Shown: positions 3,669 through 37,498, counted from the stretch's first letter. The stretch is 64,000 nt of DNA from an uncultured Pseudomonadota bacterium (GCA_963749075.1 CAVVLJ010000016.1:480001-544000), one strand, 5' to 3'. The notes: generated by a model from the letters alone, not told the origin. Program-made: numbers and translations.

Positions 3669-3718
3669 GATACGTACCGCAAAGACGCACAACCTGGGAC
3701 GCGGCCGGGTGCTGCAGG

Positions 3719-9584: not shown

Positions 9585-9617
9585 GGGACTGGGCGTGATG
9601 GACGAGGCGAGGGCGCC

Positions 9618-10046: not shown

Positions 10047-10076
10047 CTAGCGGTTCTCCAGATCGGTCGGCTTCAA
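10047..10076 (-). pseudogene. Possible 3' remnant of hicA toxin
   Basis: LKPTDLENR-stop abuts the hicB ATG (TAGATG); sequence upstream of it is replaced by AT-richer DNA. Confidence 0.35.
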
Positions 10077-10227
10077 GCGGTCGTTTTAAGTGCATAAAAA
10101 TCTAGTTATTTCAATACGTTATAATTCCATCGTCCGATAACGGAAATTTAACAATCGCGAGATTATCACTTCCCGGGTGTCAACCCTATTGTAAAGTGTC
10201 AAGTGGGATGCTAAGTAGGATATTGCA

Positions 10228-11034: not shown

Positions 11035-11041
11035 TTGTGAC

Positions 11042-11644
11042 ATGGAACGTCTAAATCAAACGACTCCATGGCTAGATAAAGACATAGTAGTGTCTTTTCT
11101 CATGCCGGTCACGCTCGCCTTGCAATTGGGCACGGGAGGGTATGAGACAAGAGAATATTACCAGCAGCGTTTACTCGATACGGTGCCAACTTATTATGGG
11201 CGTGCGGACTCCGGGCTTCCTGTCTCTGTGTCGAGGAATAATGCAAGCGACGTGCGCCACGTCCTGGACGTTCTTAAGCCTTCCGTTACAGGGCTTGCGA
11301 GATATTTGGGCGTCTCTCGGACGACGATTTACGACTGGAAGCACGGGAAGCAGGTCGGCGCGGACAATGCTGCGAAGTTGGCGAGCTTTTCGCGAGCGGC
11401 GGATGTCATCGCCGACGCGAATTTGCAGATGTCGCCCCTAGTTCGGGGAAGGAAACTCCCAGGCGGGATGACATTGTTCGAATCCATCGCGAGCGGCGCC
11501 GATGCCGAACAGGCCGCACTAGCGCTCGTCACAATGCTGCGCGAGGAGGCTGCTCGGCGAGATAGGCTCACAGCCCGGTTTTTGGGTCGCATCAAGCCCG
11601 ACACGGAGGGCACACACGATGCTCCTACCGTGTTCAATGAGTGA
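11042..11644 (+). CDS. HTH DNA-binding protein
   Basis: SVTGLARYLGVSRTTIYDWKHG helix-turn-helix. Confidence 0.7.
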   Translation: MERLNQTTPWLDKDIVVSFLMPVTLALQLGTGGYETREYYQQRLLDTVPTYYGRADSGLPVSVSRNNASDVRHVLDVLKPSVTGLARYLGVSRTTIYDWKHGKQVGADNAAKLASFSRAADVIADANLQMSPLVRGRKLPGGMTLFESIASGADAEQAALALVTMLREEAARRDRLTARFLGRIKPDTEGTHDAPTVFNE

Positions 11645-12493
11645 GTGCGATTTGTGGCCGGGCGTCACCCAAGAATCAGTTGGCGCCAGGGTCACGTTCT
11701 AACGGCCGATACCGCCGAGAAACTCGGACTAGCCCATCCAGCGAACCCCACAGAAACTACAGTTGTGGTCGTTTCTCACGACTGCGATCTCGTGCAGAGC
11801 GAAACGAGCGAACCGCTAGTGGAAGTCATTATTGGCCGCGAAATCAACGAAGACGAAGTCAATGGCAATTTCCTCAACGCAAAGGGATCGCGCACGCTTC
11901 ATCTTCCGTTTACCGCTGGGTCTAGTAGGCTTATTCTCGAGTTGTCCGCGACACAGAAACGCCAGATTGATAAGGCCGCGCTGATCCCCCATAACCCATC
12001 GCCGATCGCGCAACTGTCGCTAAGCGGGCGAAGAATTCTGCAGCGATGGCTAGCGGCGCGATACCTACGCGCCGCGTTTCCAGATGAATTTGTGGCTCGC
12101 TTCGGCAATTCAGGTGCTGACGAGCGGCTTAAAAAGATAGTGAAGAAGGCACAATCGCATCTCGTGGCAATCTATTTTGACCTCGATCGAGGGGAAGAAA
12201 AAGAGCGCGCAGGCGACGACGATCTTTATGAATTATCGATTTTCCTGGTACATCCAGTTGACCCCGATCCTGCGATCTCTCGGGAAGCTGCGCACGAGGC
12301 GAAGGTTCTTATCGAGCAAATGTTTGAGACATGTTGTAAGCACGATGGCCAGTGGCGGGGCATCCAGTTGGAAGGGTGCTACGTCCAGTCGGCTGCGGAA
12401 GTGACTTTGCACACAGTCGATTTTTTAAAGAAATGGAATACCGATTATCTAAGTTTCCGCGCCGATCCAGAAGGCCCGATGGTCGCCGTCTAG
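11645..12493 (+). CDS. Hypothetical protein (WRQG...VVSHDCD motif)
   Basis: 282 aa ORF, third gene of the AT-richer island; start uncertain. Confidence 0.65.
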   Translation: MRFVAGRHPRISWRQGHVLTADTAEKLGLAHPANPTETTVVVVSHDCDLVQSETSEPLVEVIIGREINEDEVNGNFLNAKGSRTLHLPFTAGSSRLILELSATQKRQIDKAALIPHNPSPIAQLSLSGRRILQRWLAARYLRAAFPDEFVARFGNSGADERLKKIVKKAQSHLVAIYFDLDRGEEKERAGDDDLYELSIFLVHPVDPDPAISREAAHEAKVLIEQMFETCCKHDGQWRGIQLEGCYVQSAAEVTLHTVDFLKKWNTDYLSFRADPEGPMVAV

Positions 12494-12626
12494 AATTTAC
12501 GGCTTGACCATCGATTATGTGCGGCCTTTTTTGCAATCACTTTTCTGCTCAGGAGACCGTGCGTCGGCTCGCCCCCCGCCGCGAGCCCGCCTTCCATCGT
12601 CGCCCGTCAAGTGAGAGGTGCCAGCC

Positions 12627-13058
12627 ATGCCGTTCAACAATTTCAGCGTCGGCAAGGACGTGACGCTGCAGATCGTCACCCAGCAGGGAGTGCTGCTCTC
12701 CTCGCTCCTCACCAGCTTCACCTCGAAGCAGCGCACCAACGACAAGACCGTCAAGGGCCTCGACGGCGTCATGCGCCCGCTCTTCCTGCCCGACGGCTGG
12801 GAGGGCACCTTCGAGTACGAGCGCGGCAGCTCCGACCTCGACGACTTCATCGCCGCGCTCGAGGCCAACTACTACGCGGGCGAGGCCATCACCGGCGCCA
12901 CCATCCTCGAGACGATCAGCGAGACCAACGGCCTGACCAGCCAGTACCGCTACGAGGGCGTGGTCTTCAAGCTCTCCGACGCCGGCGAATGGAAGGGCGA
13001 TTCGAGCGTCAAGATGCGCCTCGAGTTCTCGGCGAGCACGCGCAGCAAGGTGGTATGA
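12627..13058 (+). CDS. Tail tube protein
   Basis: MPFNNFSVGKD...PDGWEGTFEYER...ILETISE...QYRYEGV; size and position after sheath. Confidence 0.8.
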   Translation: MPFNNFSVGKDVTLQIVTQQGVLLSSLLTSFTSKQRTNDKTVKGLDGVMRPLFLPDGWEGTFEYERGSSDLDDFIAALEANYYAGEAITGATILETISETNGLTSQYRYEGVVFKLSDAGEWKGDSSVKMRLEFSASTRSKVV

Positions 13059-13071
13059 GCAGGCGCCCGCC

Positions 13072-14004
13072 ATGGCGCTGGTTCCCGATACCACGCTCAC
13101 GCTCGGCGACGTGAGCTTCGCCTCCTACGAGGTGCCGGAGCGCATCTCGTTCGGCGGCGCGCAGCGCCTCGCCGTGCACAAGGTCATCGGCGGCGCGCGC
13201 GTCGTCGACGCGCTCGGCCCGGACGATGCGGAGATCTGCTGGTCCGGCCGCTTCCAGAGCCCGAATGCCGGCCCGCGCGCGCGCCACCTCGACTATCTGC
13301 GCCGCCAGGGCACGGCGCTCACCCTAAGCTGGGACCAGTTCAGCTACAGCGTGGTGATCAGCCGCTTCGCGGCGGAGTTCGAGCGCTACTACCAGATTCC
13401 CTACCGCATCGCCTGCCTTGTCGTCGAGGACGACACCCAGCCGGTGACGACGAGCCCGTCGACGCCGGTCGACGAGCTGGTGGCGGAGGACGCGGCCGAG
13501 CTCGCGAGCCTCGCCTCCTCGAGCGGCAATAGCGGGATTGCCGGCAGCACCGGGCAGCTCCAGGCGCTCCTCGCCTCGTCGGCACCTCTCGCCGCGGCCT
13601 CGGCAGGGACGCTCGCCGCACTCGAGAGCCTGCTCGCCGAGCTCGCGGCGCTGATCGCGGCGGCCATTGCCGCGGCGGCCCCCGCCTTCGACGGCGGCGC
13701 CTCAGCGGGCTCGGGGGCGGCGGCGCTGCTCGGCCAGTCGAGTGCCGCCGCGGCACTCGCAATCCTCCTCGAGATGCAGGCGCTCGCCGGCCGCATTGCC
13801 TGCAACCTGCGCCGGGCCTCACCCGCCGCGTCCGGCCGCACCATCACTGTCGCCGGCGGCAATCTCTTCAGCATCGCCGCGGCACTCCTCGGCGACGCCA
13901 CCCAGTGGAGCCGCATCGCGGCCCTGAACGGCCTCACGGACCCGGTGCTCGCCGGCATCACGCAACTGCGCCTGCCGCCCATCGATACGAGCGCGGGCGG
14001 CTAG
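13072..14004 (+). CDS. Tube-initiator-like baseplate protein with C-terminal LysM-like domain
   Basis: FASYEVPERISFGGAQRLAVHK..GGARVVDALG N-domain; ITVAGGNLFSIAA..LGDATQW.RIAALNGLTDP C-domain. Confidence 0.7.
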   Translation: MALVPDTTLTLGDVSFASYEVPERISFGGAQRLAVHKVIGGARVVDALGPDDAEICWSGRFQSPNAGPRARHLDYLRRQGTALTLSWDQFSYSVVISRFAAEFERYYQIPYRIACLVVEDDTQPVTTSPSTPVDELVAEDAAELASLASSSGNSGIAGSTGQLQALLASSAPLAAASAGTLAALESLLAELAALIAAAIAAAAPAFDGGASAGSGAAALLGQSSAAAALAILLEMQALAGRIACNLRRASPAASGRTITVAGGNLFSIAAALLGDATQWSRIAALNGLTDPVLAGITQLRLPPIDTSAGG

Positions 14005-14025
14005 CATTCGGCGCGCCGGAGAACG

Positions 14026-14484
14026 ATGGAGAGAGACAGCATGCCGGACAACGTCAAGCTCACGCTCCACCCCGAGCGCCCGCGCGCCAACGGCGCCGAG
14101 GGTGCTGCCCACGCCGCGACACCGTCCCAGGAGATCCTGGAGCGCGCCAACCGCATCGTGCGCGTCTCCGACGCGCGCGGGCGCACCCTCGGCGTCAAGC
14201 AGCCGAGCCTCCTCGAGCGCTTGCGCATCTACGAGCTGGCCGGCGCGCAGAACGCCGAGAACAAGGTCTATCTCGGACTCGTGGGCACCGTGCTCGCGAT
14301 CGCCGAGCTCGACGGCGAGCGGCTGCCCTTCCCCGCCACCAAGCGCGAGCTCGAGGCGCGGGTGAGCCTGGTCGGCGACGAGGGGCTGGCGGCGGCCGGC
14401 CGCGCGCTCGCCGAGCATTTCAGCGAGCCCGCCGCCGCCGATGACGAGGAGACGGCAAAAAACGCATCGGGCACCCCGGCTTGA
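14026..14484 (+). CDS. Tail assembly chaperone (G-like)
   Basis: VSDARGRTL...GDEGLAA; carries the slippery heptamer A AAA AAC near its 3' end; alternative start 14041. Confidence 0.7.
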   Translation: MERDSMPDNVKLTLHPERPRANGAEGAAHAATPSQEILERANRIVRVSDARGRTLGVKQPSLLERLRIYELAGAQNAENKVYLGLVGTVLAIAELDGERLPFPATKRELEARVSLVGDEGLAAAGRALAEHFSEPAAADDEETAKNASGTPA

Positions 14485-14633
14485 AGCAGGCGCTCTACCT
14501 CGCTTCGAGAGGGGTGCCGTTCGACATCGCCTTCTCGCTGCCGGACCGCGAGCGGACCGGCTGGTGCCGCATGCTTGCCGAGCTCGAGCGGCCGGGCCTC
14601 GTGCGAATCGTCGACGGCCGCCGGCGCAGGTGA
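14457..14633 (+). CDS. Tail assembly chaperone GT extension reached by programmed -1 frameshift
   Basis: In-frame A-AAA-AAC at 14457-14463; the -1 frame reads KKRIGHPGLKQALYLASRGVPFDIAFSLP...RRRR-stop. Confidence 0.7.
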   Translation, partial: KKRIGHPGLKQALYLASRGVPFDIAFSLPDRERTGWCRMLAELERPGLVRIVDGRRRR

Positions 14634-14680
14634 AGACGCCCGCGATAATTATATATGTGTGCCGGCCGCAGAATTCGGAC

Positions 14681-14708
14681 TTGATTTGTTCCTGTCTTGC
14701 GCTATAAT
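14681..14708 (+). promoter_or_regulatory. Putative sigma70 promoter ahead of the immunity/effector cassette
   Basis: TTGATT-N16-TATAAT in a locally AT-rich gap. Confidence 0.55.
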
Positions 14709-14996
14709 GGGTGTAACGACCGTAGGATTTTCAATCTTAGGTCACTGCCCCTTGACGCCGGCCGCCGCCGACGGGCGCAGGAGCGGAAGCTGTCGTGAGG
14801 GGCTCGGCCATCGGACTGTCGGCGGCGTGGGCAGCGTCGGCGACCGGCCGGCCGGCCGCGCGGGAGTCGCTGCCGCTGCTTGCGGGTTGGGCGCAGCGCC
14901 CGTCTCCACAAGCGCGCGGCATCTCGCGACGGCCGGCCGGCCGTCTTTACCGGCGGTGTGGCGCCGTTTGGCGCCCTTGACGCCAGGAGAGCGAGC

Positions 14997-15743
14997 TTGA
15001 GACTGCCGTGGCGCAAGCGGGGGGCGGCGGCGGGCAATGCCGCAGGCCGCGCGCGCAAGCGCCCGCGCGTCATTGCGCGCGTGCTCGCCGGCTCAGCCCT
15101 CCTCCTCATCGCGGCCGTCTTCGGCCACGGCCTTGTGGTGAGCCTCTCGGGACCGAAGGAGGGCGCGCCCGGCCGCGACGGGGCGCCCACCGGCTACACC
15201 TACGATCTTACGCCGCTGATCCTCGAGATCGGCCCCCATAGATTCGTCGTCCCGCGCGGCTACCTCTACGCTTATGACGTAGGCAAGACGCGGCAGAGAT
15301 CGATCGGCATCCAGGTCATGCTGCCCGACTTCGAGCCGATCTCTCCGAGCAACAGCGCCTGCTTCGCCGACCAAGGAACGTGCAACGACATTTTCTGGCT
15401 GGGCCTGAGCCCGGGGCGCGGCGTGCCTGCCGAGCAACAATTGGCCAACGTGCTGCGCGGTGCCGAGGATAATGTTCGGCCTGCCTACGGGTTCGCTCAG
15501 CATTTGAACACGACCTTTGGCAGGCGTGCGGAGATATACACCTCAGGCGAGGGGCACGAGCTCCTGTTCCTCGATTGCGACACGCCCGATGAGCTGCTGC
15601 CTAGCTGCAGCCAAGAGCGCCCGCTCGGGGACGGCCTCGTGCTGTGGTACTATTTTCGCCGCGTCCATCTCGCCGAATGGCCCGACATCGAGCGCAAGGC
15701 GATGGCCTTGATCGCGCGTTTCGAGGGCGGGGACAGCCCTTGA
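14997..15743 (+). CDS. Exported/membrane-anchored immunity-like protein, copy 1
   Basis: TTG start after AGGAG; N-terminal hydrophobic segment; VPRGY..LPDFEP..C..C..YYFRRVHLAEWPDIERK; paralog downstream. Confidence 0.6.
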   Translation: MRLPWRKRGAAAGNAAGRARKRPRVIARVLAGSALLLIAAVFGHGLVVSLSGPKEGAPGRDGAPTGYTYDLTPLILEIGPHRFVVPRGYLYAYDVGKTRQRSIGIQVMLPDFEPISPSNSACFADQGTCNDIFWLGLSPGRGVPAEQQLANVLRGAEDNVRPAYGFAQHLNTTFGRRAEIYTSGEGHELLFLDCDTPDELLPSCSQERPLGDGLVLWYYFRRVHLAEWPDIERKAMALIARFEGGDSP

Positions 15744-16423
15744 AGCAGCCGTGGCCGAAGCGCCCGGGCGGCTGCATAAGACTCCTTGCCGCCTGCGTCC
15801 TCGCGCTCGTCGCGGTCATCTTCGGCCACGGCCTCTTGGGGAACCTCTCGGGACCGAAGGAGGGCGAGCTTGGCCGCGACGGCGCGCCCACCGGCTACAC
15901 CTACGATCTCGGGCCGGTCGCGGTAACGCTCGGCCCCTACGCGCTCCGCATTCCGCACGCCTACATTATCTGGAAGTCCGATCGTGGGCTTGTCGTGCTC
16001 GACGCTATCCTCCCCGACCTCGAGCCGATCCGGCCGGCCACCAGCGGCTGCTTTGCCAGGCCATGGGAATGCCATCGCGTCGTGGGGATCGCGCTTGGAG
16101 AGGAGAAGTTGCTCCCCGCCGACGAGCAGCTCGCGAATATCACCCGCGGCCTTGAGGACAAGACCCGGCCGGTCTTCGGGTTCATCCAGCATATCAATAC
16201 GACCATACGAGCGATGGCGGAGACCTACAGCATGGGCCAGGGACGCGACATGCGCCTTCTCTCTAGCGATCCGCCGGACAAGGCCGATGCCGGTTGCGAC
16301 GAGGATCGGGAAATCAGGGAAGGGTTGGTCATGACTTTCCGGTTCGATCGAGAGCGCCTTGCCGAATGGCCGGAGATCGAGCGCAAGGTGATGGGTCTGG
16401 TTGCGACCTTCATGCGCGAGTAG
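15740..16423 (+). CDS. Exported/membrane-anchored immunity-like protein, copy 2
   Basis: TTGA overlap; shares FGHGL..LSGPKEG..GRDGAPTGYTYDL and LAEWP.IERK.M.L with copy 1, with a divergent middle. Confidence 0.6.
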   Translation: MKQPWPKRPGGCIRLLAACVLALVAVIFGHGLLGNLSGPKEGELGRDGAPTGYTYDLGPVAVTLGPYALRIPHAYIIWKSDRGLVVLDAILPDLEPIRPATSGCFARPWECHRVVGIALGEEKLLPADEQLANITRGLEDKTRPVFGFIQHINTTIRAMAETYSMGQGRDMRLLSSDPPDKADAGCDEDREIREGLVMTFRFDRERLAEWPEIERKVMGLVATFMRE

Positions 16424-16496
16424 CCGGCCTGCGCGCGGCCCACGCCGGCTGATCGACGACCGCGAACCGACGCCCGGGCTCCTGAGGCATCATCCC

Positions 16497-17990
16497 ATGG
16501 ACAAGGAATTGCGGCTGCATCCCGAGGCGCTCGCCGCGGCGAGAGCCTATTGGCGGGCCAAGGATTATGCCGCGATGTACCGCGTGATCGCCCGGGATTT
16601 GCGCAGCCTCGGCGCGGATCACGATACCCAGGTCTGGTACGACCTGGCGGCCGGGATCAACGATCCGAAGTCGGAAAGCTTCCGCGGCGCCTTGGGGCGC
16701 TACTACGTGATGGAGAAGCTCTTCCAAGAGACCGGGCGGCTGATCGCGCCGTTCGGGGACGACTTCAACCGGGTGTCCGACGAGATCGCCTGGAAGGTTG
16801 GAAAATATGCCTACGAGCATGACGGCCTCGTTAGGACTTGGCCGGAAATCATGCAGAGGGATGCGCTGGCCGCAACGGAAGGTTTCCACAGCAGCCCAGA
16901 GGTCTGGCCCGGCTTCGCGGACGCCGAGCTCCTCGACTGGTGGCCGAAGTCGCTGTTCCCAAGGAGCTTCGACGACCATAGCTTTGCTGCCGACCTGCCG
17001 CCGGCCACGGCGACGGAGGTCGGACGCGCGGGCCTGAATGCCTTTTTCGACGAGGTCGAGGCGCCCGCTTGGGGTCCGCTCCGCTTCTACATCGAGGTGG
17101 GGCGCCTTGCCGCCCAGGGCCTCTACTCGACATGGCGCGGCGATTTCCGCGGCCACGACGGCGATTGGCTCGGCACCGGCAAACTCTATTGGCAGGAGCT
17201 CGGCAAGGAGCTCGAGCGTCCGTGGCATTGGGGCGACGACGTGCCGCCCGCGCCAGGTCCGCTCGGCGGGGACCTCCTCTTGCACGGCGCCGGCTCGCGC
17301 CTTTCGCTCATGGCAGCGCCGGACTCCCATTCCGGGCCGGCGCCGTCCGTCGCCGCCTCCTTCGCCGCCGATCGCGCGCGCACCGCCCTGGCGCTCCCCG
17401 GTTCCTTCGAGCCGGATTTAGCGATGCGCGGCTCTTGGATATGGCCGGACGCAGCGGCGCCGGCGACCCCGCCCGCGCCCCCGTTCGCCGCGGACGCCTC
17501 GCCTCTCCTCGCGTTGCCCTATCTGCCGGAGATGCGCGACGGGCTCGAGCTTCGGCATCTCGCGCTGCCTCCCGCCTGGGGCTCCGGGCATCTCTTCCCG
17601 GAGCTGTCGTTTCTTCCCGCGCGCGCCGCCGCCGACGGCTTCGATCCCGAGCCTGGCGACGTGCCGCACTGGCCGGCGGCCGACGAGTTCGTGCCTGACG
17701 GCGAGGCGAGCTTGCACGGTGACGGACCGCCGCCCCAGGGAGAGACCGGCGAGGACGGAAGGCGCCTCGAGCGCGTCGAGGGCGGCATCGGGCGGATCGA
17801 GCAGTCGCTGGCCGAGGTGGTCGCCAAGCTCGAGGCGAGCTACGCGCGGCGCGAGCGGCTCGGCCGCCGCGAGATCATTCGCGTGGTCTCCGAGTGGCTG
17901 GAGTACCAAGCCAACAAGCCGCGCAACATGTCGTGGCGCTACGACTTCCGCCGCACCTACACACCGCCGGGCCCCGTGCCCGCCATGTGA
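16497..17990 (+). CDS. Putative toxin/effector in the tape-measure gene position
   Basis: 497 aa: globular N-domain (YAAMYRVI..WYDLAAGIN..SDEIA..WPG), Pro/Ala linker, C-terminal coiled coil. Confidence 0.55.
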   Translation: MDKELRLHPEALAAARAYWRAKDYAAMYRVIARDLRSLGADHDTQVWYDLAAGINDPKSESFRGALGRYYVMEKLFQETGRLIAPFGDDFNRVSDEIAWKVGKYAYEHDGLVRTWPEIMQRDALAATEGFHSSPEVWPGFADAELLDWWPKSLFPRSFDDHSFAADLPPATATEVGRAGLNAFFDEVEAPAWGPLRFYIEVGRLAAQGLYSTWRGDFRGHDGDWLGTGKLYWQELGKELERPWHWGDDVPPAPGPLGGDLLLHGAGSRLSLMAAPDSHSGPAPSVAASFAADRARTALALPGSFEPDLAMRGSWIWPDAAAPATPPAPPFAADASPLLALPYLPEMRDGLELRHLALPPAWGSGHLFPELSFLPARAAADGFDPEPGDVPHWPAADEFVPDGEASLHGDGPPPQGETGEDGRRLERVEGGIGRIEQSLAEVVAKLEASYARRERLGRREIIRVVSEWLEYQANKPRNMSWRYDFRRTYTPPGPVPAM

Positions 17991-18028: not shown

Positions 18029-18064
18029 TATATATGCCGTGAGGGATATGCAACCGCGCATGGG
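18029..18064 (+). promoter_or_regulatory. Conserved leader element, copy 1 (degenerate left arm)
   Basis: TATATAT...CAACCGCGCATGGG shared with 21749 and 24301. Confidence 0.45.
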
Positions 18065-18076
18065 AAGGGAGTTGCG

Positions 18077-18838
18077 ATGCGGCCCTACGACGGGGCAGAG
18101 CGCACGAGACGGGAGGGGTTAGGGTTTCGGCGCGGCCTCGCCGCCGCCGCGCTGCTGACGGTCCTCGCCCTAGCAGCGCCGGCTGCCGCGCGCTACGGCG
18201 ATTTCGACTTCTGGGGCCGCACTTGGCCGCTGCCGATCTATGTGCCGGTGTGGAGCGCCGACGCGGCGGTCTGCCAGCGCATCGTGAAGGCGCTCAATGG
18301 TGCCCGGCGGCCGTCGCTGTCGCTATATAGCAATAAGATATTCCTCCGCTGGCATGACCATCCGGCATACCCTCGCAAGAACGGCACTGAGTGGAAGCTG
18401 GGGGAAGACTACGGCCGTTGGATGGAGGTGCCGCTCTTCAACGACGGTAGGCCGGTCATCGCGCTCAAGGTCATCTCTCCAGGCGCGCATTTCGTGCAGG
18501 AGGTCTTCTATGTCTTTGACGATCTCGCCTACTACCGCTCCCAGGACTGGCTGAAGGGCAAGCTGTGGGAAGACCCAAGTGTTCTGCAGCCGATCGAGCC
18601 GTTCCTGGGCAAGCAATTCTACACGCTGATGCCGCTGCCGAGGACAATCAAGGATTACCATTACTGGAGTCTCGATTGGATTGGCAGTGACGAGGAGACG
18701 AATATCGCAGATTTTAATGGCCGATTATACGAAGTCATCAGGAGGCCATCTGATGAGGCCATTCTTATTCTATATTTTTCCGAGGAACGCAGAGGACATG
18801 CGGTTTGTCTCATCGGGCCGAAGAAACTGGTTCGATGA
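18077..18838 (+). CDS. Exported immunity/inhibitor-like protein, pair 1
   Basis: 253 aa; signal peptide ending APAAA; RYGDFDFWGR.WPLPIYVPVWSADAAVC...VCLIGPKK; two conserved Cys. Confidence 0.7.
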   Translation: MRPYDGAERTRREGLGFRRGLAAAALLTVLALAAPAAARYGDFDFWGRTWPLPIYVPVWSADAAVCQRIVKALNGARRPSLSLYSNKIFLRWHDHPAYPRKNGTEWKLGEDYGRWMEVPLFNDGRPVIALKVISPGAHFVQEVFYVFDDLAYYRSQDWLKGKLWEDPSVLQPIEPFLGKQFYTLMPLPRTIKDYHYWSLDWIGSDEETNIADFNGRLYEVIRRPSDEAILILYFSEERRGHAVCLIGPKKLVR

Positions 18839-18880
18839 GGCCTACCAGGCTCTCGATTTACGCGAGAAGAGGACTGCGTC

Positions 18881-20533
18881 ATGGCTGACCTGCCGCCCAC
18901 CGGCAATTACGACAAGGCCGCTCGGTACAAGAGTTTCCGCAACGAGCTCATAGGGCAGGCCGAGAACCCAAATCTCGCAAGGGGACTGATCAGCAGCCCA
19001 CCGTAGTCGACGGCCATCTGACGCTTGGCTTCGGTTACGACCTCGCGACGCGCCGCTCGAATCCCGAGGGGATCCTCGCCGACCTGGCGTTGGCCGGCAT
19101 TGCGCTCACGGTCCAACAGACCGCGGCGATCCTCTACTATGGCGGCAAACCGAATTCGGTCATCCGGGGCTATCTCGACGATCTCGCCGCGTTCGGAACG
19201 ACGGTCACCGACGACGACCGCAAGTTCGTCGAGAATTTGACTGCGCAGGATCGGACAGATGAGGGCCTCGGTCACCTCCTGTCCGACCTCCTGATCACGA
19301 AGCCGCAGGGCACGGCGCTGCTCGAGATCGCCGTCTCGGAGAAGGAGAAGCGGCTCGACAGGATCATCGAGGAGCGTGCGAAGAAGCTCAGGAAGAAGGA
19401 TAAGGGCCCTGAGGCGGAGCGGCTCGAGCAGTTGACGCAGCTCACCGACCGGCGCGCGGTGCTGGTCGATATGCTCTACGAGACGGCGAGCCTCCTCGGT
19501 CCCAGGCTCCTCCACGCGCTCGGTATGGGCGATGCGGCCGCGGCGGCGGTCGAGATCGCCTTCTTCAGCAACAAGGACCCGGTCGACAACAGCGGCGACG
19601 ACCCGCGCGACCGCACGCGCGCCGAGAAGTTCCTCGGCGGCGCGCTCGAGCCGCGCACGGAGGAGGAGGCGCGGGCGTTCCTCCGCGCGCTCGCGGAGCG
19701 CTCCGGCGATCTGGCCGAGGCCCTGGCGAAACGACGATTTGCCAATGAGGGCGTTGAGGGGGATTACCGCGCTGCCGTCGGCAAGCTCGCCAACGTGGCG
19801 CTGCGCCGGCTCGGCGTGGCGGCGACGATCGCTTTGAGCGACCGCGGCCGCCTCGCGGTGCAACAGGCGGTGCCGCTCGACCGCTTCGCCGAGGCCTTCG
19901 GCCTCACGGCGCTCGAGGTGGCGCTCGTCAACCCCGAGCTCTTCCCGACCGCACCCGACCAGTGGGCGCCGACCATGCTGAGCGTGGGCGCCGCCCCGCA
20001 TCTGCCGACCGCGGCGGAGCGGGCGGCGCTCGAGCGGACGCTGCGGGATGCCGGGCCGCTCCTGGCGCCCGAGCGGTACGAGGAGCTGCGCCGGCGCTAT
20101 CTCGACAATCTGCATCCGCCGCCGCGGGGCCAAGCCGAGCTGCCCGGCGGCGGCCCGTCGCTGGCCGTGGTGCCGCGCGCGGCGCCCGGAGCTCGCGCTC
20201 GCGCTCGAGGCGGCGCTGCCGCCGCCGCAGCCGTGGTCCGCGGCCTTTGCGCGCGACGCCGAGCTGATTTGGAGCGCGCCGGTCCAGGCGCTCCTCCCGC
20301 GCGACGTCCGGGACGCCTGGCTTCGCTTTGAGGGCGGGCTCTCCGAGGAGGAGGAGGCAGCACTCCGGGTGCTGCCGGCTCCGCCGCCGCGGGGCTGGGG
20401 TGTTGCCGCCCGCCGGCGCGCGGGACCCCGTCTCGACGTGGCGGCGCTCGACCGCATCATCGCGAAGATTGAGCGGGTGGTGCGCCTCTCCGAGATCCTC
20501 CTCGAGAAGGTCGAGGCGTGGAACCGCGGGTAG
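18881..20533 (+). CDS. Lysozyme-like + LysM-like effector, pair 1 (two frameshifts, near 18980 and 20186)
   Basis: Paralog of 22601..24235 over its full length; one base missing in GCAAGGGG and one extra in GGCGCCCGG relative to paralogs; may be sequencing error. Confidence 0.6.
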
Positions 20534-20608
20534 GGCTCCGCCCGGCTTAGGCGAGGCGTCGGCCCTCGGCAATTCTCCCCATTGAGCGCGCGCAAGGTGC
20601 GGGGCGGC

Positions 20609-21697
20609 ATGAGCGACACCTCATCGAGCGGCACCTCCGCAGGGCGGCGGCCGCGCGCGGCGATCGACGTGGCAGGGACGCGGCTCGGCGGCATCGTCGA
20701 GCTCGAGGTGAGCAGCAACAACCTGCAGTCGCCGGATAGCTTCCGCGCGACGCTTGCGCTCGGCGCGCTGCCGCAATCGCTCGGCCTCGCCTATTGGGCC
20801 CAAGCGAGCGACGTGAGCGTCGAGCTCTTCGCGGGCTTCGCGGTGGACGGCGGGACGGGCGCGGACGCCACGCTCGCGAGCCTCATCCAGGGCAAGGTCG
20901 ACCGCGTCGAGATCGATCCCGTCGCCGCCGAGCTGCACCTCTCCGGCCGCGACCTCTCGGCGCCGCTCTTCGACAACCGCACCAGCGAGAAGTTCGACAA
21001 CCAGACGAGCTCGGAGATCGCCACCACGCTCGCGGCGCGGCGCGGGCTCAATCCGGTCGTGACGGCGACCACCACGCTCGCGGGGCGCTATTACGAGATC
21101 GAGACGGCGCGGCTCACCCGCGAGGTGGTCGAGTGGGACCTCCTCTCCTATCTCGCGCGCGAGGAGGCCTTCGATCTCTTCGTGCGCGGCGGGAGCCTCT
21201 ATTTCCAGCCGCCGGCGGGAGAGGCCGCGGCCACCTATGCGGTGCAGTATACGCCGGCCGCCGGCGGCACGCCTGCGGGGGGCAACTTCATCGACTTGAA
21301 GCTCGCGCGCGACCTCACCCTCGCGGAGGGTGTGAGCGTCACGGTCAAGAGCTGGAACGCCAAGGATGGCACCGGCTTCGCGCTGAGCGCCCCGCAGGCA
21401 GGCACGGGCGGACTCAGCTACAGCTTCGTGCTGCCCGGCCTCAAGCCGAGCCAGGCGCTCAAGTTCGCCTCCTCGCAATATAATGAGATCACGCGGCACG
21501 AGCGCAGCCTCGCGGTGACGCTCCCCGGCGACACCTCGCTCACGCCGCAATCGCGCCTGACGCTCGAGGGCACCGGCAGCGGCTTCGACCAGAGCTACTT
21601 CATCACCGGCATCGAGCGCCGCTTCTCCTTCGAGGGCGGCTTCACAATGACCGTCTGCGCCAAGAACGTCTCGCCCGGCGGCGACCCCGCGGGCTGA
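20609..21697 (+). CDS. Baseplate hub (late control D-like) protein
   Basis: GKVDRVEIDP..LHLSGRDL..DNRTSEKF.NQTSSEIA, EWDLLSYLA.EE.F, VTVKSWN, FDQSYFI. Confidence 0.8.
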   Translation: MSDTSSSGTSAGRRPRAAIDVAGTRLGGIVELEVSSNNLQSPDSFRATLALGALPQSLGLAYWAQASDVSVELFAGFAVDGGTGADATLASLIQGKVDRVEIDPVAAELHLSGRDLSAPLFDNRTSEKFDNQTSSEIATTLAARRGLNPVVTATTTLAGRYYEIETARLTREVVEWDLLSYLAREEAFDLFVRGGSLYFQPPAGEAAATYAVQYTPAAGGTPAGGNFIDLKLARDLTLAEGVSVTVKSWNAKDGTGFALSAPQAGTGGLSYSFVLPGLKPSQALKFASSQYNEITRHERSLAVTLPGDTSLTPQSRLTLEGTGSGFDQSYFITGIERRFSFEGGFTMTVCAKNVSPGGDPAG

Positions 21698-21748
21698 CGG
21701 CAGCACCCCCGGCGCGCGCTCTCGCGCTGGCGGCATCGACGGAAGCGG

Positions 21749-21784
21749 TATATATCCCATGTCGGTTGTGCAACCGCGCATGGG
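21749..21784 (+). promoter_or_regulatory. Conserved leader element, copy 2
   Basis: TATATAT followed by hairpin CCCATG-T-CGGTTG-TG-CAACCG-CG-CATGGG. Confidence 0.5.
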
Positions 21785-21796
21785 GCGGGAGCTTCG

Positions 21797-22558
21797 ATGC
21801 GGCCGGGCGACGGGACGGAGCGCACGGGACGAGAGGGGTTGCGGCTTCGGCGCGGCCTCGCCGCCGCCGCGCTGCTGACGCTCGTCGCCATTGCAGCGCC
21901 CGCTGCCGCGCGCTACGGCGATTTCGACTTCTGGGGCCGCAGCTGGCCGCTGCCGATCTACGTGCCGGTGTGGAGCGCGGACGCGGCGGTGTGCGGGCGC
22001 ATCGTTAAGGCGCTCAACGCTGCCCGGCGGCCGTCGATGTCGCTCTACAGCAACAGGATTTTCCTCCGCTGGCAGGACTATCCGGCGGACGCGCGCACCA
22101 ACGGTCCCGATTGGCACCCATACCAAGACCATGCGCGCTGGATGGAGGTGCCATTCTTCAACGACGGCTGGCCGGTCATCGCGTTCAAGGTTATCTATGA
22201 GAGCAGCCGCTTCATCGACGAGCATCTCTACGTCTTCGACGATTTGGCCTACTACCGCTCCGAGGACTGGCTGACGGACAAGCTGCGGCAGAACCCGCGT
22301 GTATTGATGCCGATCGAGCCGTTCCTGGCCAAGCAGTTCTACACATTGATGCCGCTGCCGAAGACAATGAAGGATTACCATTATTGGAGTCTCGATTGGG
22401 TCGGGTATGATGAGGAGACGAATATAGCGAATATTGATGGCCGATTATATATAGTCATTAGGAGGCCGTCTGGTGAGGCCATTCTCGTATTATTGTTTTC
22501 CGAGGAACGCAAGGGGCGCGCAGTGTGTCTCATCGGGCCAAAGAAACTGGTTCGATGA
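21797..22558 (+). CDS. Exported immunity/inhibitor-like protein, pair 2
   Basis: 253 aa paralog of 18077..18838. Confidence 0.7.
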   Translation: MRPGDGTERTGREGLRLRRGLAAAALLTLVAIAAPAAARYGDFDFWGRSWPLPIYVPVWSADAAVCGRIVKALNAARRPSMSLYSNRIFLRWQDYPADARTNGPDWHPYQDHARWMEVPFFNDGWPVIAFKVIYESSRFIDEHLYVFDDLAYYRSEDWLTDKLRQNPRVLMPIEPFLAKQFYTLMPLPKTMKDYHYWSLDWVGYDEETNIANIDGRLYIVIRRPSGEAILVLLFSEERKGRAVCLIGPKKLVR

Positions 22559-22600
22559 GGCCTGCCGGGCTCTCGATTTACGAGAGAAGAGGGTTGTGGC

Positions 22601-24235
22601 ATGGCTAACTCGGCGCTCACCGGCAATCACGACGAGGCCAAACAGTACAAGAAATTCCGCAACGAGCTCATCGAGCAGGGCGAGAACCGGGACCTCGCAA
22701 AGGGGACTGATCAGCAGCCCACGGTAGTCGACGGTCATGTAACGCTCGGCTTCGGCTACGACCTGGCGACGCGGCGCGCGGATCCCTACGGGATTCTCGC
22801 CGACCTCGCCTCCGCCGGCATCGCCCTCACGGCCAAACAGACCGCGGCCATCCTCTTCTATGGCGGGGCGCCGATCGCCAGCATCCTGCACTATCTCGGC
22901 GTTCTCGCCGTCTGGACGACGGTCACCGACGACGACCGCAAGTTCGTTGAGAATTTGAGCGCGCAGGATCGGACGGATGAGGGCCTTGGCCACCTTCTGT
23001 CCGGCCTCCTGATCACGAAGCCGCAGGGCGTGGCGTTATTCGAGATCGCCGTTTCGGAGAAGGAGAAGAGGTTCGACGGGATCATCGAGGGGCTTCAGAA
23101 GGACCTCAAGAAACACGAGAAGGTCATTGAGGCGCAGCAGCTCGAGCGGCTCAAGCTGCTCTCCGACCAGCGCGCGGTGCTGGTCGATCTGCTCTACCAG
23201 ACGGAGCGTTTCCTCGGGCCGAGGCTCCGCGACGCGCTTATGGCGAACGACGCGATGGCGGCGGCGACCGAGATTGCCTTCTTCACCAATTCGGCAGGGA
23301 CGCAGCACGGCGACGAGCGCAACCTCGCGCGCTCCAGGGCGTTCCTCGGCCATGCCTTCGAGCCGACGACGGAGGCGGAGGCGCGGTCGGTCCTGCATGT
23401 TCTCGCCGAGCGGCAAGGAGACCTGGCGCAGACGCTGGCGTCACGGCGGCGTCACGGCAAGGTTCTGAAGGACTACCGCGACCAGGTGAGCGCCGCGGCC
23501 AACGCGGCGCTGCGCAGGCTCGGCGTGGCGACGACGGTCGCCTTGAGCGATAGCGGCCGCCTCGCGGTGCAACAGGCGGTGCCGGTCGACCGCTTCGCCG
23601 AGGCCTTCGGCCTCACGGCCCTCGAGGTGGCGCTCGTCAATCCCGAGCTTTTCCCGACGGCACCCGACCAGGGGGCGCCGACCATGCTGCGCGCGGGTGC
23701 CGCCCCGCATCTGCCGACCGCGGCGGAGCGGGCGGCGCTCGAGCGGACGCTACGAGATGCCGGACCGCTCCTGGCACCCGAGCGGTTCGAGGAGCTGCGC
23801 CGGCGCTATCTCGACAATCTGCATCCGCCGCGGCGCGGTCATGCCGAGCTGCCCGACGGCGCCCCGTCGCTGGCCGCGGCGCGGCTCGTGGCGCCGGAGC
23901 TCGAGCTCGAGGCGGCCCTGCCGCCGCCGCCGGCCGGGTCTGCCGCCTTCGCGCGCGACGCGGAGCTGACTTCGAGCGCGCCGGTCCAGACGCTCCTCCC
24001 GCGCGACGGCCGGGACGCCTGGCTTCGCCTTGAGAGCGGGCTCTCCGAGGCGGAGGCCGCGGTACTCTGGGCGCGGCCCGTTCCGCCGCCGCGGGGCTGG
24101 GGCGCCGCCGCAGGCCGGCGCGCGGCATCTCGCCTGAGCGCGGAGGCGCTCGACCGCATCATCGCGAAGATCGAGCGGGCGGTGCGCCTTTCCGAAATCC
24201 TCCTCGAGAAGGTCGAGGCGTGGAACCGCGGGTAG
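22601..24235 (+). CDS. Lysozyme-like + LysM-like effector, pair 2 (intact)
   Basis: GHVTLGFGYDL, ITKPQG.AL.E, QRAVLVDLLYQ..LGPRL.DAL..D..AA.EI (T4-lysozyme/GH24-like); FAEAFGLTALEVALVNPEL..MLRAGAAPHLP (LysM-like); Pro/Ala linker; C-terminal coil. Confidence 0.7.
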   Translation: MANSALTGNHDEAKQYKKFRNELIEQGENRDLAKGTDQQPTVVDGHVTLGFGYDLATRRADPYGILADLASAGIALTAKQTAAILFYGGAPIASILHYLGVLAVWTTVTDDDRKFVENLSAQDRTDEGLGHLLSGLLITKPQGVALFEIAVSEKEKRFDGIIEGLQKDLKKHEKVIEAQQLERLKLLSDQRAVLVDLLYQTERFLGPRLRDALMANDAMAAATEIAFFTNSAGTQHGDERNLARSRAFLGHAFEPTTEAEARSVLHVLAERQGDLAQTLASRRRHGKVLKDYRDQVSAAANAALRRLGVATTVALSDSGRLAVQQAVPVDRFAEAFGLTALEVALVNPELFPTAPDQGAPTMLRAGAAPHLPTAAERAALERTLRDAGPLLAPERFEELRRRYLDNLHPPRRGHAELPDGAPSLAAARLVAPELELEAALPPPPAGSAAFARDAELTSSAPVQTLLPRDGRDAWLRLESGLSEAEAAVLWARPVPPPRGWGAAAGRRAASRLSAEALDRIIAKIERAVRLSEILLEKVEAWNRG

Positions 24236-24264
24236 CATGCCGATGGACGCCTTCCTCAACCGGC
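23575..24264 (+). repeat. Near-identical direct repeat, copy A (copy B about 26131-26820)
   Basis: Effector 3' halves plus the first 28 nt of the spike gene are almost base-identical. Confidence 0.85.
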
Positions 24265-24300
24265 CGAGCCCTGCCGCGCTGGCCGCATCGACGTTGACAG

Positions 24301-24336
24301 GATATATCTCATGTCGGTTATACAACCGACTATGGG
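24301..24336 (+). promoter_or_regulatory. Conserved leader element, copy 3
   Basis: GATATAT followed by GTCGGTT-ATAC-AACCGAC inverted repeat. Confidence 0.5.
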
Positions 24337-24348
24337 ATGGAGGTCCCG

Positions 24349-25110
24349 ATGCGGCCGTGCGGCGCGGCGGAACGGACGAAAGGAGAGGGGCTTCGGCGCC
24401 GCCTCGCCGCCGCCGTGCTGCTCGCGCTTCTCGCGGTCGCGGTGCCGGCCGCGGCGCGCTATGGCGATTTCGACTTCTGGGGCCGCACGTGGCCGCTCCC
24501 GATTTATGTGCCGGTGTGGAGCGCCGATGCGGCGGTGTGCCGGCGCATCGTGAAGGCGCTCAACGCGGCGCGGCAGCCATCGCGGTCGCTCTACAGCAAT
24601 AAGATCTTCCTGCGCTGGCAGGACCATCCGGCATACGCTCCCGCCGGCAGCGCCGATCGGAAGCTGGGCGACCCCTACGGCCGTTGGATGGAGGCACCGT
24701 TCTTCAACGACGGCAAGCCGGTCGTTGCGCTCAAAGTCATTTATGAGGGTGACCGCTTTGTCGTCGAGCATTTCTACGTCTTCGATGATCTCGCCTACTA
24801 CCAGTCCCAGGACTGGCTGGAGGGCAAGCTGTGGGAGGATCCGAGCGTGCTTCGGCCGATCGAGCCGTTCTTGAACAAGGCTTTCAACACGTTCATCGCG
24901 CTGCCGAAGACGACAATGGATTACGATTATTGGAACCGCACCGGGATCGGCAGCACCCAGGAGGTCAATCTCGCTCGCCTGGATGACAAGATCTACGCCG
25001 TGGTGAGGATGCCGGCATACGAGCGATTTCTCGTTCTGTATTTCACGGGCGACAGGCAGGGCCACCCGGTTTGTATCATCGGGCCGAAGAAGCGGGTCAG
25101 GTACAAATAG
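24349..25110 (+). CDS. Exported immunity/inhibitor-like protein, pair 3
   Basis: 253 aa paralog with a divergent C-terminal third. Confidence 0.7.
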   Translation: MRPCGAAERTKGEGLRRRLAAAVLLALLAVAVPAAARYGDFDFWGRTWPLPIYVPVWSADAAVCRRIVKALNAARQPSRSLYSNKIFLRWQDHPAYAPAGSADRKLGDPYGRWMEAPFFNDGKPVVALKVIYEGDRFVVEHFYVFDDLAYYQSQDWLEGKLWEDPSVLRPIEPFLNKAFNTFIALPKTTMDYDYWNRTGIGSTQEVNLARLDDKIYAVVRMPAYERFLVLYFTGDRQGHPVCIIGPKKRVRYK

Positions 25111-25152
25111 TGCAGACCCTTACGCGGTCTTTGCTCTAAGGAGGATTGCGGC

Positions 25153-26791
25153 ATGGCTGATCTGCCGCTCACTGGCAATTACGACAAGCCCGAGCGGTAC
25201 AAGAAATTCCGCGATGAGCTTATAGAGCAGGGCGAGAACCCCGATCTCGCAAAGGGGATTGATCAGTCACCCGTCGTGGTCAATGGCCATGTGACGCTCG
25301 GCTTCGGCTATGACCTGGCGACGCGGCGCTCGGAGCCCTACGGGATTCTCGCGGACCTGGCGGCGGCCGGGATCGCGCTCACGGTCCGACAGACCGCGGC
25401 GATCCTCTTCTATGGCGGCAAGTCAAATGCGGTCGTCCGGGGCTATCTCGACGATCTCGCGGCGTTCGGGACGACGGTCACGGACGAGGACCGGAAGTTT
25501 GCGGCGAGCTTGACTGCGCCGGATCGGACGGACGATCGGCTGGGCGATCTCCTGTCCGATCTCATGATCACGAAGCCGCAGGGCGAGGCGCTGCTCGAGA
25601 TTGCCGTTTCGGAGAAGGAGAAGCGGCTCGACAGGATCATCGAGGGGCTTGCGGAGGACCTCGAGAGGCAGGGGAGGGCGGATGAGGCGCGGACGCTCGA
25701 GCAGCGCATGCGGTTCACCGACCAGCGCGCGGTGCTGGCCGATCTGCTCTACCAGACGGAGCATTTTCTGGGGCCGAAGCTCCGCGACGCGCTCGTCGCG
25801 GGCGACGCGATGGCGGCGGCGGCCGAGATCGCCTTCTTCGCCAATTCCGCGGGGACGCAGCACGACGACGAGCGCAACCTCGCGCGCGCCAAGGCGTTCC
25901 TCGGCCATCCCTTCGAGCCGAAGACGGAGGCCGAGGCGCGGTCGGTCCTGCATGTGCTCGCCGAGCGGCAAGGAGACCTGGCGCAGGCGCTGGCGAGCCG
26001 GCGGTACGACGATCGCGTTCGGAAGAACTACAGCGACGAGGTGAGCGCTGCCGCCAATGCGGCGCTGCGCAGGCTCGGCGTGGCGACGACGGTCGCCTTG
26101 ATCGACAGCGGCCGCCTCGCGGTGCACGGAGGCGGTGCCGCTCGACCGCTTCGCCGAGGCCTTCGGCCTCACGGCCCTCGAGGTGGCGCTCGTCAATCCC
26201 GAGCTTTTCCCGACGGCACCCGACCAGGGGGCGCCGACCATGCTGCGCGCGGGTGCCGCCCCGCATCTGCCGACCGCGGCGGAGCGGGCGGCGCTCGAGC
26301 GGACGCTACGAGATGCCGGACCGCTCCTGGCACCCGAGCGGTTCGAGGAGCTGCGCCGGCGCTATCTCGACAATCTGCATCCGCCGCGGCGCGGTCATGC
26401 CGAGCTGCCCGACGGCGCCCCGTCGCTGGCCGCGGCGCGGCTCGTGGCGCCGGAGCTCGAGCTCGAGGCGGCCCTGCCGCCGCCGCCGGCCGGGTCTGCC
26501 GCCTTCGCGCGCGACGCGGAGCTGACTTCGAGCGCGCCGGTCCAGACGCTCCTCCCGCGCGACGGCCGGGACGCCTGGCTTCGCCTTGAGAGCGGGCTCT
26601 CCGAGGCGGAGGCCGCGGTACTCTGGGCGCGGCCCGTTCCGCCGCCGCGGGGCTGGGGCGCCGCCGCAGGCCGGCGCGCGGCATCTCGCCTGAGCGCGGA
26701 GGCGCTCGACCGCATCATCGCGAAGATCGAGCGGGTGGTGCGCCTTTCCGAAATCCTCCTCGAGAAGGTCGAGGCGTGGAACCGCGGGTAG
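25153..26791 (+). CDS. Lysozyme-like + LysM-like effector, pair 3 (frameshift near 26127)
   Basis: ORFs 25153..26589 and 26135..26791 join into a full paralog of 22601..24235; +1 base at GTGCACGGAGG versus GTGCAACAGG. Confidence 0.65.
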
Positions 26792-26792
26792 C

Positions 26793-27392
26793 ATGCCGAT
26801 GGACGCCTTCCTCAACCGGCTGCGGCTCGAGGTGGGCCGCGCGCTCTCGGGCCGCGCCGACCCGCGGCTCGCAACCGTCAGCTCCTTCGACCCGCAGCAC
26901 TATGCCGCCAAGGTCATGGTGCAGCCGGAGAACGTCGAGACCGGCTGGCTCCCGGTGCTGTCGCCCTGGGTCGGCAGCGAGTGGGGGTTCTTCGCACCGG
27001 TAACGCCGGGCGACCAGGTGCTCGTGCTCTTTCAGGAGAACGACCAGGAGGTCGGCCTCGTCCTCTCGCGCCTCTTCAGCAACCAGCAGCGCCCGCTCGC
27101 GGTCAACTCGGGCGAGCTCTGGCTGGTGCACCAGAGCGGCTCGTTCTTGAAGCTCACCAACGCCGACCCGCAGCACAACGTCCCCGCCAAGGTGCTGATC
27201 AACGGCATGATCGAGATCGACGTGACGGCAACCACCATCAACCTCTCGGTGAGCCAGCAGGATTCGAGCAACACGCCGCCCACCATCAACATCACGGCCA
27301 GCGCGAGCTCGCTCACCCCCGCGATCAACATCGCCGCGAACGGCGGCCCGGTCAACGTGACGGGCGCCACCGTCAACCTCAACCCCTCGTGA
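26793..27392 (+). CDS. Baseplate spike (gpV-like) protein
   Basis: VSSFDP..YAAKV..QPE..ETGWLP..SPWVG..PGDQVLVLFQE, GELWLVHQSGS; beta-repeat C-terminus. Confidence 0.85.
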   Translation: MPMDAFLNRLRLEVGRALSGRADPRLATVSSFDPQHYAAKVMVQPENVETGWLPVLSPWVGSEWGFFAPVTPGDQVLVLFQENDQEVGLVLSRLFSNQQRPLAVNSGELWLVHQSGSFLKLTNADPQHNVPAKVLINGMIEIDVTATTINLSVSQQDSSNTPPTINITASASSLTPAINIAANGGPVNVTGATVNLNPS

Positions 27393-27399
27393 GCCGGCC

Positions 27400-27657
27400 A
27401 TGGCCAAGGTGGCGCGGCTCGGCGATACGGCGAGCCACGGCGGCGAGATCGCGACCGCCTCGCCCGACGTGACGGCCAACGGCATCGGGGTGGCGCGCGT
27501 GGGCGACAGCTACGACTGCCCGATCCATGGCGCCAATCCCATTGTGACGGGCTCGGCGACCGTCAAGGCCAACGGCCGGCTCGTCGCGCGCGTGGGCGAT
27601 GCGACCGCCTGCGGCGCCGTGATCACCAGCGGCTCGCCCAACGTCGACGCGGGATAG
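27400..27657 (+). CDS. PAAR-domain spike tip protein
   Basis: Three VAR.GD repeats with HGG, CPIHG and CGA. Confidence 0.9.
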   Translation: MAKVARLGDTASHGGEIATASPDVTANGIGVARVGDSYDCPIHGANPIVTGSATVKANGRLVARVGDATACGAVITSGSPNVDAG

Positions 27658-37033: not shown

Positions 37034-37065
37034 GCGGTGCCGACGCGGATAAGGGCTCGATCGCC

Positions 37066-37476: not shown

Positions 37477-37498
37477 GCGCACCCGGTCCGGTTCCCCC

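Follow-up and report, generated by a model that had tools for sequence, protein, structure and literature searches.

Three paralogous copies of a two-gene cassette were found in a 64,000-nt stretch of DNA from an uncultured Pseudomonadota bacterium (GCA_963749075.1, CAVVLJ010000016.1:480001-544000), which is called the window in its entirety and from whose first letter positions are counted. Each copy comprises a gene for a predicted exported protein of 253 amino acids (A) followed by a gene (B) whose product appears to carry a highly divergent domain of the T4-type (GH24) lysozymes. The unit is best explained as an accessory cassette of two genes that belongs to a myovirus-type (pro)phage lineage of soil Alphaproteobacteria. 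By analogy with known pairs of lysozymes and inhibitors, B might be a delivered muramidase and A its cognate periplasmic protector, delivery by the phage particle being favoured over other routes; a probability of about 0.45 is given to this reading. A preliminary description of the region had reported three complete pairs of proteins. The repeat and its motifs stand, whereas three whole B proteins do not.

Organization of the cassettes

The three units (18077-20533, 21797-24235 and 24349-26791, all on the plus strand) were recognized by DNA alignment (repeat families D1-D8). Within each unit, a motif of the form ATATAT...CAACCG is followed by the open reading frame (ORF) of A, a gap of about 43 nt from the A stop to the B start that contains a Shine-Dalgarno sequence, and the B gene. 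Unit 1 precedes the gene for the baseplate hub, with the other two units placed between the hub gene and the spike gene; genes for a PAAR protein, a W-like protein and baseplate J come after the spike. This is a myovirus-type tail module, in which the genes for sheath, tube, hub, spike and baseplate J keep their conserved order. The hub (20582-21697, plus strand) is gpD/gp27-like and VgrG-related (phrog_52, 1.2e-30; VgrG_rel) with 38% identity to gp43 of Ralstonia phage Raharianne, and the spike (26793-27392, plus strand) has a gpV-like OB domain (PF04717; TIGR01644); both are what the preliminary description had taken them for. G+C content is 64-73% across the window except in a low-G+C stretch at about 10-12 kb, and the coding frames are marked by their third-position G+C.

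A1 (18077-18838), A2 (21797-22558) and A3 (24349-25110) are all intact on the plus strand, A3 having 257 residues if its start is the ATG at 24337. As had been proposed, these 253-residue ORFs carry signal peptides, with a basic n-region, a hydrophobic h-region and an AAA/RY site. The AT-rich motif upstream of them is found by pattern match at 18030-18056, 21750-21776 and 24302-24328 on the plus strand; these are its three matches in the window, each 5' of an A gene, where none is expected from 100 shuffles, and the core of the motif also lies 5' of A in three metagenome loci. It may be a promoter or operator of the cassette. A scan for sigma-70 promoters and terminators gave matches at chance level only, and the consensus fold of the A leader RNA amounts to merely -4 kcal/mol.

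State of the B genes

The motifs TLGFGYDL and RAVLVD.LY are present in all three B regions, in agreement with the preliminary description, although a protein of about 545 amino acids does not follow each A as it had stated: B2 (22601-24235, plus strand; 544 amino acids) is the sole open frame. B1 (18881-20533, plus strand) is a GH24-like pseudogene. Owing to one nucleotide missing near 18979, the frame from the ATG at 18881 is open for no more than 41 codons, the stop falling between the catalytic Glu and TLGFG; seven additional nucleotides near 20190 make a second break. In B3 (25153-26791, plus strand) the GH24-like part is in frame to about codon 325, where one additional nucleotide near 26127 puts the final 218 codons out of frame; the tail frame (26135-26791) is almost the same as the tail of B2. 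Its stop (26789-26791) ends 1 nt before the spike ATG at 26793, exactly as had been noted. A short-read contig of a public soil run, possibly the assembly's own sample, covers 18850-19227 without a gap, and thus the first B1 break is not peculiar to the present assembly; this check took in that break only, the sites at 20190 and 26127 lying outside the contigs. Programmed frameshifting in B was considered and rejected, since the positions of the breaks differ between the copies.

The ends of units 2 and 3 (23574-24264 and 26130-26820) differ at two positions in 691 nt, and both contain the opening 28 nt of the spike ORF. In unit 2 this copy of the spike start forms a scar directly after B2 (24237-24264, plus strand), which would stem from duplication or gene conversion, and the left edge of the 691-nt converted tract is the exact site of the B3 frameshift. 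The near-identity of the two ends, spike start included, points to recent duplication or gene conversion of an ancestral arrangement in which A, B and the spike gene were consecutive.

Kinship of B with GH24 lysozymes

An exhaustive profile search with B over 1.84 billion representatives retrieved 46 proteins, and the matches outside the family fall on profile positions of about 8-290. Of the 37 distant matches, 36 were scanned with Pfam (P0052, with 3205 amino acids, was excluded for its length); PF00959 (Phage_lysozyme) is present in 24 of them at E<=0.01, in 21 above the Pfam cut-off. Seven of the 36 have RTX repeats and one has a PT-HINT module. When the B profile was compared by hhalign with 12 of the PF00959-type relatives, the two matched over residues 10-269 of B2 (probability 98.6%, E 9e-16). 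Throughout the 24 sequences of the joint alignment, Glu28, the counterpart of Glu11 of T4 lysozyme, and Gly52 of the TLGFG turn never vary, Gly50 is nearly invariant, and Thr48 within TLGFG, the counterpart of T4 lysozyme Thr26, is invariant across the B family. A joint profile of B and bona fide members reaches solved GH24 lysozymes (8app at 4.8e-11, T4 lysozyme at about 1e-6 to 5e-5), these matches being driven by the bona fide PF00959 members in the profile. The proposed kinship with T4-type lysozymes is thus borne out by the profile search, hhalign and the alignment, and the catalytic Glu had been placed correctly near IEQGEN, as the invariant Glu28 lies inside that stretch.

The AlphaFold model of B2 has a mean per-residue confidence (pLDDT) of 62.6 and a predicted TM-score (pTM) of 0.45; it is good over residues 30-150 (pLDDT 70-87) and 250-410 and poor over 172-204 and 411-544. 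With VIA-align, for which a Z score of 8 is the caution line, residues 10-253 of the model match six GH24-type chains at Z 4.7-5.7, all below that line; among them are P22 lysozyme (Z 5.0, 135/146 aligned), the DLP12 endolysin (Z 5.1, 140/165) and pesticin (4epf; Z 5.6, root-mean-square deviation 5.0, 172 aligned), and an unrelated protein heads the list at Z 6.0. We conclude from the profile and alignment evidence that residues 10-269 of B2 would form a highly divergent GH24-like domain in which the catalytic Glu is kept and the second carboxylate is absent. Scans of A and B with Pfam, PHROGs and NCBIfam returned nothing, nor did Pfam give anything useful at E 10, and B thus adds what appears to be a GH24 subfamily so divergent that it escapes standard annotation. 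With the canonical GH24 endolysins of PF00959 (the T4 E, P22 gp19 and lambda R type) it has in common its catalytic Glu, a T-[IL]-G-x-G turn and helices at the C terminus (motif region EI..SN...G..R), but it stays below the Pfam threshold, has insertions of about 60 and 25 residues, has EN(x)DL in place of EG, and is extended by a C-terminal half of 270 residues.

The C-terminal half of B

After the GH24-like domain (about 10-269), B2 comprises a beta-alpha-alpha-beta unit (about 313-365), a poorly modelled stretch (411-512) and a long C-terminal helix (514-543), the last 130 or so residues being poorly modelled except for this helix. It has no Cys and no hydrophobic stretch. The LysM-like segment of the preliminary description finds no support in sequence: residues of about 313-372 gave no Pfam match to LysM (PF01476), the segment profile finds no LysM chain in the PDB, and a comparison by hhalign with the element's own LysM-like tail protein gives a probability of 0.1%. 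Structure gives weak hints. The model has strands and two helices in a beta-alpha-alpha-beta arrangement at 313-362 (pLDDT about 87-90), and VIA-align weakly matches this unit with 4xcm_B residues 21-61 (Z 4.7, root-mean-square deviation 1.6 Å, 41 aligned) and with OsCEBiP (Z 5.2-5.4), in both of which the matched parts are what we take to be LysM modules. Atlas features of a B homologue also point to Phage_lysozyme+LysM clusters (score 0.87), as a lead only. A LysM module in B is therefore possible on the model. The C-terminal half was found in no protein outside the family among the 1.84 billion representatives, and the idea that its terminal helix also occurs in a 498-residue protein upstream of A1 was rejected (hhalign probability 12%).

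A, the putative exported partner

A is a predicted exported protein of a new family. By a signal-peptide heuristic, 12 of its 13 members show an n-region rich in K/R, then a hydrophobic core and an AxA-like site, together with exactly two Cys in the mature part, so that the export signals claimed for A are present in these 12. The protein is probably exported by the Sec route and disulfide-bonded in the periplasm, as judged from these features. Mature A has about 213 residues, and the model of A2 (pTM 0.74; pLDDT 80-95 for residues 50-253) is mostly beta. Foldseek of this model against the PDB gave no match at E<=0.001, and the A profile found nothing relevant in the PDB. The best VIA-align match (Z 5.8) is to propeller blades of prolyl oligopeptidases and gives no clear fold, followed by insignificant rows that include small proteins of immunity or resistance, namely CarG (5.2), Tni2 (4.7) and Tsi1 (3.9); the fold of A is possibly new, as far as the model goes. 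The Rap1a-like protein of the same element is unrelated to the A profile (hhalign probability 0.3%). A1-A3 of the window form one clade (support 100/99), with the A copies of a metagenome-assembled genome (MAG) and of a 611-kb contig in other clades, so that by the tree the window copies are a lineage-specific expansion. A distant homologue is encoded in another genome (G046:C10, L040 9441-10187, minus strand; hhalign 97.7%, E 2.4e-12); it, too, has a signal peptide and the two Cys.

Distribution and insertion into phage modules

Both families are very rare. A search of 5.8 billion proteins found six proteins of the B family, with the window's own B1 fragment among them, and the A family has 13 proteins. 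The three window units are the only A or B copies in this genome. There was no match in a tblastn search of INPHARED phages and PLSDB plasmids with A2 and B2, and pattern scans of IMG/VR and of GTDB representatives for both families detected no relative. The B profile gave nothing in 10 other genomes of the order and a single chance-level match of 21.5 bits in 400 genomes of the class. With the A profile, the same 400 genomes yielded a single distant homologue, the one described above, and a further 400 of the phylum marginal matches only. Literature searches brought up no description of such cassettes.

B is present on nine metagenome contigs. In the six that have sequence upstream of B, A lies directly upstream, as in all three window units, so that the tight pairing of A with B that had been asserted holds in every readable locus. 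One contig matches the MAG, where two successive A-B pairs, each followed by a small ORF, precede a portal gene; on another, B comes before genes for a DUF6582 protein, a capsid protein of the SU10 type and a Rap1a-like protein, the same order of head genes as in the window. In these portal (L018) and scaffold/capsid (L019) contexts the cassettes stand in the head module of relatives, and other phages of the lineage likewise have more than one copy. The bracketing of hub and spike genes is thus a fact of the window but not a conserved feature, related contigs having the cassettes before portal or scaffold/capsid genes. In related tail modules, which were found via baseplate J, the hub and spike genes are adjacent (12-120 nt) in all 10 IMG/VR contigs and in phage Raharianne, and none of these has A, B or PAAR. 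The cassettes, like the PAAR gene, are therefore insertions that have been added to a conserved tail module. At its hub-spike junction, such a module can accept cassettes resembling cargo and, along with them, a PAAR tip.

Proposed function and its alternatives

In the mechanism that is favoured here, B, which has neither a signal peptide nor Cys, would be made in the cytoplasm; coming from outside, most likely carried on or inside the entering phage particle, it would arrive in another cell's periplasm and cut the wall there. A in the periplasm of the carrier cell would bind and neutralise incoming B of its own type, the carrier would thereby be protected, and related phages would be excluded. 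The array would then be a repertoire in which three protectors and one enzyme (B2) are functional, the other two enzymes (B1 and B3) having decayed. We infer the enzymatic activity of B, its binding by A, the delivery route and the timing of expression from the arrangement as a whole: a cytoplasmic, putatively wall-cutting enzyme with a linked exported partner, inserted in a virion module, with intact partners beside decayed enzymes, fits an enzyme that acts from outside and is countered by a periplasmic protector. Of the earlier interpretation, the GH24 kinship, the export of A and its linkage to B are supported, but three working pairs are not. The element has a second gene for a putative periplasmic protector, an exported Rap1a homologue (PF18602, 5e-18), which suggests that the lineage collects such protectors.

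The two genes decay differently. Six of 13 examined B copies are broken by a frameshift, truncation or cut (B1, B3, L022, L024, L023 and the first B of L020, which has the GH24 part only), five of the other seven are full length and two run unbroken off contig ends, and none of nine A copies is broken, a tally that is to be read with the caveat that the copies are few and partly related and that B is about twice as long as A. One additional B is split on a single contig into pieces of 376 and 182 residues. In L023, a B fragment (residues 12-60) at 49-195 is followed by an unrelated ORF of 277 residues at 240-1073, which by eye looks like an IS-family transposase. The pairwise ratio of nonsynonymous to synonymous rates (dN/dS) lies at 0.26-0.33 between A copies and at 0.52-0.65 between B copies. 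The co-divergence of A and B (r = 0.73 over 21 pairs) was not used as evidence, because shared ancestry explains it. Intact A beside broken B fits the expectation for a pair of protector and enzyme.

Besides the caveat on decay, several observations weigh against a delivered muramidase with its own protector. The equivalent of Asp20 of T4 lysozyme, the aspartate of YxD, is an invariant Val43 in the B family, in a loop whose alignment is uncertain, and consequently the chemistry of B may differ or the domain may bind without cutting. The Pfam PF00959 model matched none of six B-family members above its cut-off (one at E 0.044), and the profile of B alone found no lysozyme in the PDB. Foldseek of the full B2 model against the PDB gave nothing at E<=0.001, so that the GH24-like fold that structure prediction had been expected to reveal is represented by the VIA-align matches below the caution line. 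A shows no relation to known inhibitor or immunity families in Pfam (even at E 10), PHROGs or NCBIfam, and no significant fold match. The distant A homologue of G046 has no B and lies in a non-phage chromosomal region among metabolic genes, beside a class-III aminotransferase-like gene, which indicates that A-like proteins can exist independently of B. The position next to the hub and spike genes is not kept in relatives. The element itself is possibly defective, as no integrase or repressor was recognized in it and its tape-measure region is in three frames.

Three other explanations have to be weighed. The cassettes might be morons for competition between bacteria, in which a muramidase effector and its immunity protein are released via a type VI secretion system (T6SS) of the host or otherwise, the prophage being a mere carrier. 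The genome does have a T6SS, with two TssC matches on contig C20; RTX secretion repeats in seven and a polymorphic-toxin PT-HINT module in one of the scanned GH24 relatives of B would agree with this, a Rap1a-type T6SS immunity homologue is in the same element, and decayed toxins beside intact immunity genes are typical of effector/immunity arrays. The Tni2 and Tsi1 leads of the A model would point the same way, far below significance as they are. We nevertheless regard competition as unlikely: the T6SS genes are on C20 and the cassettes on C16, all readable contexts are phage structural modules (hub/spike, or portal or scaffold/capsid in L018 and L019), B has no T6SS adaptor or marker domain by Pfam, and its C-terminal half, being confined to the family, is not a shared delivery module.

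That B2 is the endolysin of the element for host lysis, with A an unrelated exported accessory protein or a lysis regulator, would agree with the layout of a GH24 domain and a wall-binding module that is common in endolysins, and with the lack of any other lysin recognized among the element ORFs by Pfam and PHROGs, a scan in which the SLT, GH19, GH25 and M15 families were not searched for; PF00959 and PF05838 have no match genome-wide, and the sole Amidase_2 match is distant (C16:115683). An endolysin would not be expected as 544 residues with a 270-residue additional half, nor in three copies of which two are broken; moreover, the cassettes separate the hub gene from the spike gene, which they abut translationally, and have no holin-like small membrane gene beside them. 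In the relative Raharianne the endolysin gene is located after the fibre genes. This explanation is accordingly rated improbable. Still less credence is given to selfish duplications decaying in a defective prophage, with B devoid of present function and A kept for a periplasmic role independent of B. The broken state of two of the three window B copies, the split tape-measure region, the lack of a recognized integrase or repressor, host genes on either side and the solitary A-like protein of another genome speak for it, but B2 and five further B genes of full length keep an open frame of about 545-565 codons against a background of 65-70% G+C, B is 40-49% identical across phages with dN/dS below 1, and the order A-then-B is kept in every readable locus.

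A more elaborate form of the preferred reading, particle delivery of B with A as protector, would be a lock-and-key code of entry. Each phage would carry a diverging entry muramidase B at its tail tip, with the spike and the newly acquired PAAR protein, lysogens would stockpile matching blockers A of a new fold, and the array would record past arms races; three A would exclude three types of B, one B being kept for the phage's own entry. This form is rather doubtful. Were it true, it would represent a modular and diversifying superinfection exclusion via lysozyme inhibition, which to our knowledge has so far been seen only as the single Spackle/gp5 pair of T4. If A does block B, it would be just the second kind of inhibitor known to be encoded by a phage against a phage entry lysozyme, with a new fold and in a diversifying array, and the specificity of the exclusion would be directly testable. 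If A does not block B, an unannotated lysozyme relative and a linked exported protein remain.

Relation to known lysozyme-inhibitor systems

The closest parallel is T4 Spackle (gp61.3), a periplasmic, signal-peptide-bearing and disulfide-containing protein that binds the lysozyme domain of gp5 and causes superinfection exclusion (PMC7677548). The likeness lies in B3 and the scar after B2, which abut the spike gene, and in the export and two conserved Cys of A, whose function would be assigned by this analogy. Spackle is a helical bundle of 75 residues (PMC7677548), from which A, with about 213 mature and mostly beta residues and no PHROG or Pfam match, is set apart. The tail lysozyme of T4 is fused inside the spike protein, whereas B is a separate protein of 544 residues, and the single pair of T4 contrasts with the present arrays of diverged pairs, most of which have a decayed enzyme.

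Pesticin with Pim, and T6SS spikes with pesticin-type domains (TssI2/TsiI2), are reported to combine an imported T4-lysozyme-like muramidase with periplasmic immunity (PMC3390615, PMC9620997). The B model resembles pesticin by the weak match to 4epf (Z 5.6), but B has no Pfam Pesticin match, no receptor-binding or translocation domain and no VgrG fusion, and its context is one of phage structural genes. Ivy, MliC/PliC, PliG, PliI, Tsi1, Tsi3 and Rap1a, which protect peptidoglycan from a hydrolase, are like A exported, small and mostly beta; A nevertheless has no sequence relation to these lysozyme inhibitors and T6SS immunity proteins (Pfam to E 10), and its fold matches are insignificant.

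The element and its other genes

The element extends over about 469,200-519,800 of G000:C16 (L025 and window 1-39,800), from before the large terminase gene to a Lipase_3 gene, with host metabolic genes flanking both sides. Since no integrase, repressor or replication gene was recognized among the element ORFs scanned, it may be a defective or domesticated prophage. The Rap1a homologue is encoded at 3644-4117 of the window (plus strand) after the capsid gene and has a signal peptide ending in TAHA/Q; it belongs to phrog_3870, and another gene of this PHROG has the same relative place in L019, a related metagenome contig. The phage lineage seems to carry periplasmic protectors against peptidoglycan-targeting effectors.

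The gene for the PAAR tip protein (27400-27657, plus strand; Pfam) lies between the spike gene and the W-like gene. It is the sole PAAR match in the genome despite the T6SS sheath genes on C20, and it is absent from the 10 related viral contigs. Upstream, a low-G+C island (window 9556-12600; 51% versus about 69%) is inserted between the sheath and tube genes and contains a gene for a HicB-like antitoxin (9618-10046, minus strand) and ORFs with weak GP3_package and HTH matches. The gene order at 12615-17990 is unlike that of all relatives: a LysM-like gene of the gp42 type (13072-14004) directly follows the tube gene, while it stands just before the hub gene in relatives, and the tape-measure region consists of three ORFs in frames 0, 2 and 0 (14880-15743, 15644-16423 and 16494-17990), where relatives have a single ORF of 637-726 residues, with no similarity to the tape measures of relatives. 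The tail may thus be defective. At the other end of the element, a Lipase_3 (class 3 lipase) gene at 37037-38146 (plus strand) follows the fibre genes, a position that in Raharianne is taken by a GDSL esterase.

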